Shown here piece after piece: positions 61,600 to 63,219 of a stretch of DNA of 64,000 nt. Source of the stretch: a virus (Duplodnaviria > Heunggongvirae > Uroviricota > Caudoviricetes). The position numbers and the translations under genes were made by a program. The stretch lies in the IMG/VR virus record IMGVR_UViG_3300008108_000006, one strand, 5' to 3'. The notes beneath the pieces are model-generated. The model had not been told where the DNA came from, searched no databases, and was given only the letters and a program-made list of their open reading frames with translations. Position 1 is the first letter of the stretch; each line of letters starts with the position of its first letter.

Positions 61600-62123
61600 T
61601 TTCTTTTAAATATAAATATTAACAACCCATTCCACATTTTCCAAATTTTTTCCCAAAATTTTTATTTCACTTTTTGGACCTAATTCAGGATGGGGGGTCA
61701 GTTTCCCAAAATTTTTCCAGAAATTTTTATCAGACATATGTACCACATTTAGATATGGGGGTCAACTTATATAAATTTCATTTAAGGGATTGTCCCCCCA
61801 TTTTTAACATTTTTTAACACTATATAGGGGGGATACGGAGGGGGGGACCCCCATCTATGGGGGGTGTAAGGGGGTCAGGTATAGGGGGTTATGTATTATA
61901 AACTATTATATATATCCCCCACCCCCATATGTTAAATTTTGTTAAAGGTTTGGTATTGTGGGATTGGGTTTGTATCTTTATATTGGGGGACCATATCTTT
62001 TTTGTTAAAAAAGGTATGGTTCCATTACATATTAAAAACCTTTATAATGTATGGGGTTTGGTAAAAAGTGTATAGGGTTTTCCTCAGAATGGGGGTTAAA
62101 AAAGTTTAATTAGATCCCCGACC
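61600..62123. repeat. Non-coding array of (A)TGGGGG(T) G-runs in both orientations, with interspersed TGTTAA/TTAACA hexamers and three ttcccaaaattttt repeats
   Basis: Read directly. There are at least 12 G5-G7 runs in 520 bp of a genome that otherwise almost never has them. Confidence 0.6.
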
Positions 62124-62411
62124 TTACACATCATTTAGAATTTTAATACATAACTCACGGATGGTCCTGTCGGTTAGGTCCATATCTTGTTCGGTTATGA
62201 TCTTGTTATTGAATAGGTCCCCGATGATGTTGGACATATTGTGGAACAGGAGTTGGTATTGGGGAGTTCCTTTGTAGTTATACAATAATTTCTTATACGT
62301 AAGTGATCCTTGAAGATCATCCCCCACTCTGAACTCTACAATATGTTGTCCGTTGGGATTGGTCACCACCAATATGTCATACTTCTCTAATATGTATTTT
62401 TCCATAGTCAC
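62124..62411 (-). CDS. Hypothetical protein embedded in the G-run repeat region
   Basis: ORF track, 95 aa, protein-like composition. Confidence 0.45.
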   Translation of the reverse strand: MTMEKYILEKYDILVVTNPNGQHIVEFRVGDDLQGSLTYKKLLYNYKGTPQYQLLFHNMSNIIGDLFNNKIITEQDMDLTDRTIRELCIKILNDV

Positions 62412-63219
62412 AAATATACAACAATCATTGGGGTTATCAATATAAAGTTTTCCACACCGAATTGTGGATAACTATGTCAGGATCGGGGATTTGTTAAAAA
62501 ATGTTAAGGTTTGTTAATGTTAAATTTTGTTAAAAATTGTTAAGATTGGGGGACGGGACAATCCCCTCACCTTTGTGTTACGGGGTTTTATGGTTTAATA
62601 TATATGACACTTTATGACACCGATCTATATGAATTGGTCCTGACGATAGTAAGAAAGGGGTTTATTAAAAAAATCCCCCATAGTGATAGTGTTATAAAGG
62701 ATTATTTTTACTATATCTATTTCCCAGCGAATAATATAATGTCCAGTTTAGTGAGCGGGGAGACACGTAGTGTCCTAAAAACCCTATGTTATTATCCTTC
62801 AACGAGGTCCTTTGTTTATGTGGGTGTCATAATGTGTCATAGGATTGAGATCTTTATATGATAATCTATGTGGTTATTCTTTACCCCATTCTATGTATGA
62901 TCTTATATTGGTTCATCCGTATTCATCATCTAATATATGGGGTTATCGTACAACATACTGATTGGTCCTTCGTATGGATCCCGAATATAACCCAACCATA
63001 ATTCCCCGAATTAAAATAAAGGGTTTTAAGACGATCAAATTATATCGGACATATACTGACATCATCTTCACATAGATCTCTTAACAGACACTCTAAAATG
63101 GGGGTAAAATAAGTGAGATCATAAATGGGAACGAAACCCATAAACGAAATTCCCCACTTTATGTGGGGAATGTAGTGACCCCGAATAGGGGGTATGGGGT
63201 GAAGTGAGTATTTGTGGTC
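62412..63219. repeat. Continuation of the G-run region: six direct TGTTAA iterons at 62497-62545, then further (A)TGGGG(G)T motifs and a GGGGGACGGGACAATCCCCTC near-palindrome
   Basis: Read directly. Coding potential is doubtful (track ORF 62604..62861 only). Confidence 0.5.

Follow-up and report, generated by a model that had tools for sequence, protein, structure and literature searches.

Organization and conservation of the module

The 64,000-nucleotide stretch of the tailed-phage record IMGVR_UViG_3300008108_000006 (Caudoviricetes) analysed here, referred to as the window, has a G+C content of about 32% and carries near its right end, at positions 61600-63219, a region crowded with G runs and short repeats that a first-pass annotation had proposed as a candidate origin, packaging or centromere-like array. 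The sequence between approximately 61700 and 63230 is a discrete, single-copy module of about 1.5 kb common to two phage clades, A and B, in which phased TGTTAA repeats with promoter-like boxes, a pair of DnaA boxes and G/C-run hairpins accompany a single protein gene. It is a real, conserved and unusual non-coding element, which we tentatively read as a control region through which the phage would make use of a host-type operator.

The module is located in an accessory region where gene cassettes are exchanged, which is composed of small genes, all on the minus strand. DNA nearly identical to the window (99.2-99.96%) was found in many freshwater metagenome contigs, one of them of 216.8 kb, and the window encodes a protein with a type IX secretion system (T9SS) C-terminal sorting domain, together with NAMPT, a T4 Rnl1-type RNA ligase, ClpP, a CCA-adding/poly(A) polymerase head domain, a class II aminoacyl-tRNA synthetase-like protein and a HAD 'Swiss army knife' RNA-repair domain. 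Moreover, the Bacteroidetes –7 box, TAnnTTTG, occurs just before the minus-strand genes near the module (58385, 60669, 60967 and 61272). The freshwater contigs, the T9SS domain and these boxes together indicate that the window belongs to an abundant jumbo phage of a Bacteroidota host.

The second clade (B; contigs L021-L024, L026 and L028) was found through a 77%-identical version of the module gene and a metagenome scan with a conserved 20-mer. The two clades are about 77% identical overall, and the motif array, whose conservation in related phages had been proposed as a check, is kept even at this distance. Identity between clades reaches 85-91% at 61760-61950 and 93% at 63090-63230, compared with 71-79% in the remaining non-coding sequence and 81% in the gene, whose third codon positions are only about 66% identical. 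Some non-coding blocks (90-93%) thus exceed the gene itself in conservation, and much of the non-coding DNA must be under constraint. The similarity between clades ends abruptly at 63230, beside the stop codon of whichever gene lies upstream; the flanks differ between clades, and in two clade B contigs (L021 and L022) the right-flank gene encodes a UmuC-like polymerase.

The left edge is formed by a junction or promoter-like element (61600-61760, minus strand) located upstream of a minus-strand 80-aa gene and made of TTCCCAAAA(A)TTTTT and ATGGGGGGTCA units. The motif TTCCCAAAA, described previously as occurring three times, is present exactly twice (61650 and 61703), together with one variant at 61637. 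This element is only about 60% identical between clades and is different in kind from the module. Three diverged copies of it precede three different minus-strand gene cassettes in contig L027, and recombination junctions at 61614 and 61702 recur in L009, L029 and L040, indicating that cassettes are swapped at copies of this element.

Searches for related sequences gave no match to the module by BLAST against phage and plasmid collections, the only match from these being an unrelated 107-nt element (61237-61343) common with LR756500.1. Neither a relative of the encoded protein nor the conserved 20-mer was found in IMG/VR, the 20-mer was absent from the Genome Taxonomy Database (GTDB) genomes, and no second copy of the module turned up elsewhere in the window or in other loci totalling about 1 Mb.

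The module has one real protein gene, an ORFan of 93 codons (62124-62405, minus strand), with 16:6:32 substitutions at the three codon positions, so that the previous description of the region as low-coding holds apart from this gene. Homologues of the 93-aa protein were found by word-based and full HMMER searches in this phage group only; it belongs to no Pfam or PHROG family and shows no similarity to initiator or Rep proteins, while a weak match to the beta-strand repeats of the pilin-like FctA protein was treated as uninformative, and its AlphaFold model is of low confidence (pLDDT 59). A Bacteroidetes-type –7 box, TATATTTG (62411-62418, minus strand), lies 5 nt before the ATG and is conserved in clade B. 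Two other open reading frames were discarded as genes. The frame at 62604-62861, whose expression as a protein would have spoken against a cis-acting array, has no codon-position bias (24:23:20) and is broken in clade B by a stop after seven codons, and that at 61929-62075 likewise shows no bias, though it is open in all lineages.

Phased TGTTAA repeats and promoter-like units

Of the 129 TGTTAA copies in the window, 13 are found at 61600-63219 (3.3 expected), and the spaced pair TGTTAA-N4-TGTTAA is confined to this region. The six tandem repeats reported by the first-pass annotation are present and phased, starting at 62492, 62502, 62512, 62518, 62528 and 62538, about 5 nt away from where they had been placed; other copies are found at 61804/61814 (as TTAACA), 61930/61940 and 62003. 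The largest array (62492-62543, plus strand) thus contains six hexamers in one orientation with a 10-bp period interrupted by one 6-bp step, two of them reading TGTTAAAAA. Direct repeats of one orientation and 10-bp phasing are found in two runs of this array (62492/62502/62512 and 62518/62528/62538) and in two separate pairs.

These repeats belong to three promoter-like units. The first, P1 (61786-61826, minus strand), points leftward and consists of a TGTTAA-N4-TGTTAA pair (61819/61809), the spacer GGGGGGACAATCCC and, 24 nt after the repeats, the –7-like box GAAATTTA, which reads GAAATTTG in clade B. P2 (61930-61980, plus strand) has its pair at 61930-61945, followed at exactly 27 nt by the –7-like box TATCTTTA (61973-61980), which matches TAnnTTTG at seven of eight positions; we estimate the chance of this geometry at about 0.02, and the stretch 61916-61990 is nearly invariant in all lineages. 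P3 is headed by the six-repeat array, its spacer (62544-62575, plus strand) containing the GC hairpin GGGGGACGGGACAATCCCC and then, 24 nt after the array, the –7-like box CACCTTTG. The near-palindrome GGGGGACGGGACAATCCCC had been noticed previously at 62548, where it is indeed present, as the inverted partner of GGGATTGTCCCCCC at 61786. In fact, P1 and P3 are inverted homologues, both having GGGGG(ACG)GGACAATCCC between the array and a –7-like box located at 24 nt; P1 is invariant between clades and pairs with 62521-62567 as an inverted repeat (I2, 32 nt, 81%).

A candidate short plus-strand transcript from P2 would cover 61986-62066, including a U6-GUUA-A6 hairpin and a terminator hairpin at about 62038-62060 that the 93-aa gene would use in the opposite sense, as a bidirectional terminator. 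The plus strand at 61980-62099 has a folding z-score of –3.6, and in the hairpin at about 62040-62060 two pairs change from C-G to U-G, a change that keeps the pairing on the plus strand only.

A second class of repeats is located at 62603-62841, where TGACAC-N4-TGACAC (62605-62620) and its inverted copy (62824-62839) flank the palindrome GACACGTAGTGTC (62763-62775). The two TGACAC pairs (I14, 19 nt, 95% complementary) are the only such pairs in the window, and both they and the palindrome are conserved in clade B. TGACAC-N4-TGACAC and GGGATTGTCCC are each confined to the module within the window, each as an inverted pair. The repeats at 62603-62841 are probably sites for a second DNA-binding protein.

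A matching element in Bacteroidota genomes

A scan of one genome per prokaryotic species (GTDB) with TGTTAA-N4-TGTTAA-N4-TGTTAA, that is, three repeats at 10-bp spacing, returned at least 120 loci (L049-L168). Among the matches listed, 50 of the 80 titled loci were from Bacteroidota; these had differing spacers, whereas the listed matches from other phyla were mostly exact 10-mer microsatellites. In the 89 non-tandem arrays listed, TAnnTTTG followed the last repeat at 27 nt in 11 cases, at 28 nt in four and at 29 nt in one, and no other offset recurred more than twice. A fourth repeat was usually present one turn further upstream.

Nineteen of the listed arrays, each from a different species, precede a gene resembling a histidine kinase by its N-terminal pattern and length. 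All five kinases tested were confirmed, four by the Pfam domains HisKA and HATPase_c and one by NCBIfam histidine-kinase models, and an OmpR-family regulator follows the kinase in six of six loci checked. For both regulators scanned the best NCBIfam match was RprY, with 361.7 and 253.2 bits, below the 370-bit cut-off. Other host arrays adjoin a TMEM260-like gene, beside pyrG in Sphingobacteriia. RprY was reported to bind its own promoter in P. gingivalis and to be autoregulated, while RprX is found in other oral and enteric Bacteroidetes and is missing from P. gingivalis (PMC3646045, PMC5706477). The position of the arrays upstream of rprXY-like operons, together with the reported autoregulation of RprY, leads us to regard the phased TGTTAA array as the probable operator of this RprY-type regulator family. 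A by-product of this analysis is thus a phylum-wide candidate operator, in which TGTTAA repeats with a period of 10 bp precede the –7 box of rprXY-like operons by 27-28 nt.

Arrays of this kind followed by a –7 box at 27-29 nt were also found in other viral contigs, and 4-11 tandem TGTTAA-containing 10-mers occur in the IMG/VR contigs L224, L242, L240, L201, L226 and L248, which include a 442-kb phage. Therefore, phage use of the TGTTAA element is not unique to this genome. In a further family of contigs (L172, L178, L196 and others), three TGTTAA repeats stand directly upstream of a gene start, beside CCCCCACACC...GGGG.

G/C runs and hairpins

The window contains 146 G or C runs of at least four nucleotides and 43 of at least five, of which 35 (22 G and 13 C) and 18, respectively, lie at 61600-63219. 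The density of runs of at least four nucleotides is about 21 per kb in this region and about 1.8 per kb elsewhere, so that the reported enrichment is genuine (about 12-fold), although the statement that such runs are otherwise almost absent was overstated. Two further G5 runs are found at 59810-59821. The ATGGGGG/CCCCCAT core that had been highlighted is strongly concentrated, with 9 of its 13 window copies in the region (0.33 expected), as are TATGGGG (7 of 13) and GGGGGTCA (3 of 4). TATGGGG was considered as a phage promoter and rejected, its copies outside the module having no consistent link to gene starts. The miniature copy of the array previously described at 59801-59850 reads as reported; it is a partial one, made of GGGGGTTGGGGG, 15 nt and TGTTAAAAA, lies in another cassette junction (I7, I17) and is repeated in L027.

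Within the module, G/C runs bracket every TGTTAA array at 2-7 nt and form the stems of short hairpins, among them the terminator hairpin at 63171-63149 and the three hairpins of the right-edge block. In the non-coding parts, the plus strand is the G-rich one. Five G5-G7 runs, with the palindrome CCCCCAT-CT-ATGGGGG, are clustered at 61827-61888 (plus strand) between the divergent P1 and P2, and 61827-61874 is the single match in the 64 kb, on either strand, to a G-quadruplex motif of four runs of three or more G with loops of up to 12 nt. This cluster is largely conserved in clade B, with a single-base difference in L026. It is followed by a 27-bp AT-rich segment clamped by G5 and C5ACCCCC (61884-61926), an inverted repeat capable of forming a hairpin or cruciform, in which the RNAalifold pairs (211-247) are all invariant. 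A place for the G runs in the host operator was discarded: they adjoin only about 6 of 75 host arrays among the matches listed, which is the chance rate, and they are therefore phage-specific.

The right block (63106-63230) has a 22-bp closing stem around three GC-run hairpins and includes the minus-strand intrinsic terminator at 63171-63149. It folds at –62.3 kcal/mol on the plus strand (z = –7.5), the minus strand having z = –4.4, and folding beyond that of shuffled sequences (z below –3) was observed only at 63060-63239, on both strands, and at 61980-62099 on the plus strand. Among the 41 consensus pairs of the block, one compensatory and two one-sided changes that still pair were found and none was broken, except for one alignment gap, and a 4-nt deletion in L025 leaves one of the hairpins intact. 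The block could serve as an RNA domain, as a group of insulating terminators or in both capacities.

DnaA boxes

At 62448-62471, flanked on one side by the 93-aa gene promoter and on the other by the six-repeat array, two DnaA boxes, TTTTCCACA and TGTGGATAA (62463-62471, minus strand), face each other at a distance of 6 nt; the window contains no perfect TTATCCACA other than the second of these. Clade A has these two consensus boxes and one-mismatch TTTTTAACA sites. In clade B, TGTGGATTA and TGTGGATAA replace two of the TGTTAA repeats in phase, giving four to five boxes within 90 bp, three of them of consensus sequence and two with one mismatch. The repeat variant TGTTAAAAA, of which 5 of the 10 window copies are in the module, is itself one mismatch from the relaxed DnaA consensus TTWTNCACA. 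AT-rich stretches are present near the boxes and are short (about 9-27 bp).

A control region and its alternatives

We tentatively favour, at somewhat less than even probability, the interpretation of the module as a control region that recruits host regulators, acts mainly as DNA and sets transcription from within the module. The 10-bp-phased repeats would copy the Bacteroidota operator found 27-28 nt upstream of TAnnTTTG in histidine-kinase/RprY-type operons, and as candidate sites they would most likely be bound by a host RprY-type regulator of the OmpR/PhoB family. P1 would face left, toward the small-gene cassettes, and P2 right, into a short plus-strand RNA starting near 61986, with the putative G-quadruplex-capable tract formed between them by the G/C runs; P3 would face right beside the promoter of the 93-aa gene, the head-to-head DnaA boxes adjoining the largest array, and the G/C-run hairpin stems would insulate the module from read-through. 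Such insulation, by the terminator-rich right-edge block and the bidirectional terminator at about 62040-62060, counts in favour of a control region. The match of the TGTTAA repeats to a host promoter-operator points to transcriptional wiring rather than to plasmid-type iterons. The earlier proposal is retained as regards a conserved, cis-acting and largely non-coding array, whereas its reading of the repeats as iterons is not supported in the form in which it was made. The motif statistics, boundaries, conservation above the coding level, real reading frames, host-element geometry and association with RprY-type operons are observed, whereas the proteins that would bind, the firing of the promoters and the output that would be controlled are inferred.

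Several observations weigh against this interpretation. The host spacing is found in P2 only, the boxes of P1 and P3 at 24 nt being 3 nt short of it; the P2 box ends in A instead of G; the P3 box is present in clade A and lost in clade B; and conservation is poor in the middle part of the putative P2 transcript. The literature examined contains no published RprY motif, and the assignment of the regulator rests on the location of the arrays. The G runs, which were the core of the original observation, have a role that neither this model nor its rivals account for. In addition, the clade B DnaA boxes that take the place of TGTTAA repeats fit a replication origin at least as well.

An origin is indeed the alternative with the most to recommend it, and we regard it as possible, though not probable. 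Host DnaA would bind the box pair and spread along the phased weak sites, with initiation gated by a response regulator in the manner of CtrA, ArcA or MtrA at bacterial origins. An R-loop or G-quadruplex primer, of the kind known from ColE1 and mitochondrial CSBII, might moreover arise when the G-run cluster is transcribed. The clade B boxes, which share the orientation and phase of the TGTTAA array, were counted as the strongest argument for it, to which are added the only perfect DnaA box of the window with a second consensus box 6 bp away, the near-consensus TGTTAAAAA sites, half of whose window copies are here, the sole G-quadruplex motif with GC-clamped AT-rich segments, the conservation of non-coding sequence above the coding level and the insulation of the module by terminators. 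Against an origin, every gene flanking the module to left and right, up to 10 kb past the end of the window, is on the minus strand, with no strand switch, and the cumulative GC skew, which had been suggested as a check, has no turning point at the module and declines steadily between about 41 and 64 kb. Among the neighbours no replication gene was recognised, the 93-aa protein lacks initiator similarity, and neither repeated 13-mers nor DnaA-trios appeared at 62440-62620 in repeat and tandem-repeat output or by eye. Only two good DnaA boxes exist in clade A, the module lies in the accessory, cassette-swapping part of the genome, and in hosts the TGTTAA arrays show promoter-type geometry. The repeats do not match an iteron-type origin, having a core of 6 bp with variable spacers, compared with iterons of 17-22 bp accompanied by an initiator gene. 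A combined scheme, which we hold to be unlikely, is that of a phage origin gated by host signals, in which RprY-type arrays and DnaA boxes would together govern the divergent transcripts that cross the G-quadruplex tract and an R-loop or G-quadruplex would prime or license replication; in a weaker form, the arrays may soak up host RprY and DnaA during infection.

The folding of the right block, far beyond that of shuffled sequences on the plus strand, raises the alternative of a non-coding RNA locus, in which a structured element of about 125 nt (63106-63230) might constitute the 3′ domain of a P3 transcript about 650 nt long on the plus strand, accompanied by a short P2 RNA. The 93% conservation of the block, the hairpin that survives a deletion and the pair changes that keep pairing speak for it, as do the G-rich plus strand of the non-coding parts and the G-U-preserving changes at 62040-62060. 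Nevertheless, this alternative appears improbable: Rfam 15 gave no match at the gathering score in the whole window and, up to E = 5, only noise in the module (two sub-threshold tRNA matches fall outside it), folding z-scores elsewhere in the module are ordinary, most predicted pairs are invariant and thus uninformative either way, the P3 –7 box is not conserved, and the right block has a central hairpin with a T-tract that is naturally interpreted as a minus-strand terminator serving the gene upstream.

A packaging or injection signal, namely a pac site, a terminal-repeat boundary or a T5-type injection-stop repeat region with DnaA boxes, would find a precedent in the comparable 1.2-kb untranslated repeat region kept by T5-like phages (10.1101/866236). 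Assemblies also break here unusually often: in 55 of 75 collection blocks the longest contig with the 93-aa gene is shorter than 2 kb, as compared with 7 of 37 for the neighbouring gene. Contig ends, used as a proxy, did not reveal a physical terminus, since those of the metagenome contigs spread across 61650-63240 instead of piling up at one site, and the module is internal to the 216.8-kb contig. In several contigs, strain-level divergence is higher in the module than in its flanks, as in L039 (94.7% versus 99.3%); such microdiversity alone explains the fragmented assembly, better than a physical end does, and suggests that 61600-63240 is a microdiversity or recombination hot spot across L002-L048. 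No terminase gene was recognised among the neighbouring genes scanned, and a packaging role is held to be highly improbable. The lowest probability, a very small one, is given to a centromere-like partition site or a decaying mobile element, a non-autonomous transposon with sub-terminal repeats, which the inverted units (61786-61826 and 62521-62567) flanking the 93-aa gene and the 22-bp inverted ends of the right block could evoke. No ParA-, ParB-, ParM- or ParR-type gene was found in a PHROGs scan of the adjacent small genes or in Pfam annotations within about 10 kb on related contigs, nor was a transposase among the neighbouring genes scanned. Conservation runs well outside the inverted units, and an invertible segment or transposon between them was discarded, since all related contigs examined are colinear, with no inversion or alternative insertion site, and no second copy was found in the sequences searched. 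The pac and centromere proposals of the first-pass annotation are thus disfavoured by the lack of recognised partition or terminase genes among the scanned neighbours and by contig ends scattered over about 1.5 kb.

Comparison with known systems

One model for a control region of this kind is the rprX-rprY promoter itself, with three to four TGTTAA repeats at 10-bp phasing followed at 27-28 nt by TAnnTTTG. P2 reproduces the repeat, the phasing and a 27-nt spacing; it differs in having two repeats instead of four and a box ending in A, while in P1 and P3 the distance is 24 nt and the spacer contains a GC hairpin absent from the host promoters. Host response-regulator boxes are known in phage genomes from the PhoB 'Pho boxes' upstream of cyanophage pstS and phoA. 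Those are similarly direct repeats of about 10-11-bp period, of the OmpR/PhoB-family type, in which a host promoter was copied for steering by a two-component system. Here, the repeat is TGTTAA and the presumed regulator of RprY type rather than PhoB, no recognisable metabolic gene lies downstream, up to six repeats are distributed in three units, and the whole is embedded in a 1.5-kb non-coding module with DnaA boxes and G runs.

DnaA-dependent origins with regulator sites include Caulobacter Cori, where CtrA recognizes TTAA-N7-TTAA, and the iteron origins RK2 oriV and P1 oriR. The module resembles them in its DnaA boxes next to phased short repeats, its AT-rich and GC-rich segments and its TTAA-type OmpR-family sites. 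It differs from them in the absence of an adjacent initiator gene, in cores of 6 bp instead of iterons of 17-22 bp, in the lack of unwinding-element repeats in the searches made and in showing neither a skew nor a strand switch.

The Untranslated Repeat Region 3 of T5-like phages, a 1.2-kb region of dense direct repeats, inverted repeats and palindromes with eight DnaA boxes, was proposed as an injection stop signal, a function that is itself only proposed (Davison, bioRxiv 10.1101/866236). In both regions, non-coding DNA longer than 1 kb is conserved beyond the level of the adjacent reading frames and shows nested direct and inverted repeats, palindromes, helical phasing of sites and consensus as well as variant DnaA boxes; the T5 variant TTATTAACA, which is TGTTAATAA on the other strand (10.1101/866236), is of the same class as TGTTAAAAA. 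By contrast, the T5 region lies in the terminal repeat beside a shear site, whereas the module is internal to its contig, and the T5 boxes are paired 3 bp apart in 131-bp inverted repeats, whereas here there is one pair 6 bp apart. G-run clusters are not described in the T5 paper (10.1101/866236).

The control regions and origins of Bacteroidota jumbo phages are essentially unmapped, and the module points to two host proteins, the RprY-type regulator and DnaA, whose signals a large, virulent-type phage may sense or whose function it may take over. If functional, the G-run cluster would be a rare example of a G-quadruplex element conserved in the regulatory or replication region of a phage. For the present, the practical consequence is modest, as all of this is read from sequence.

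Other features of the window

Two tRNA-like genes (60049-60165 and 60268-60368, minus strand) stand among the RNA-ligase, CCA-adding and RNA-repair genes. Their acceptor, D and T arms look canonical, with about 60 nt between the D and T arms; they score 22.5 and 23.1 bits with the Rfam tRNA model, whose gathering score is 29, and ARAGORN detects none by default, reporting them under intron or relaxed settings only and with inconsistent anticodons. Close to them, a perfect sigma-70 consensus promoter (59800-59772, minus strand; TTGACA, 17 nt, TATAAT, 12 of 12 positions) is located upstream of the gene at 59493-59753, which is odd for a phage that otherwise uses Bacteroidetes TAnnTTTG boxes.

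The small minus-strand reading frame at 61065-61289, within 61058-61344, is bounded by 26-nt inverted repeats that are 88% complementary. Its flanks, and not the frame itself, are 90-96% identical to positions 3818-4107 of LR756500.1, a 462-kb uncultured huge phage otherwise unrelated to the window. The segment 61058-61344 resembles a mobile small-gene cassette or a junction element common to both phages. On the other side of the module, the gene at 63220-63911 and those upstream of it (L013, 1-10372; L026, 1566-7796) form a large family of paralogues, whose products are of small to medium size and begin with nearly the same N-terminal sequence (MNLQETIRRVLRE / MKIENIIRRVLREEQ). At their 5′ ends these genes show 78-95% DNA identity between paralogues, and some clade B members carry leucine-rich-repeat-like LGNLEYVGG repeats.

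Further away, perfect tandem duplications of 51 bp (two copies, 41188-41291) and 26 bp (2.1 copies, 37955-38008) are found inside or beside plus-strand reading frames. Finally, the protein encoded at 9883-10770 (minus strand) combines NUMOD3 motifs with a TnsA-like endonuclease N-terminal domain and is probably a homing endonuclease, a candidate that fits the mosaic, cassette-swapping nature of the region.

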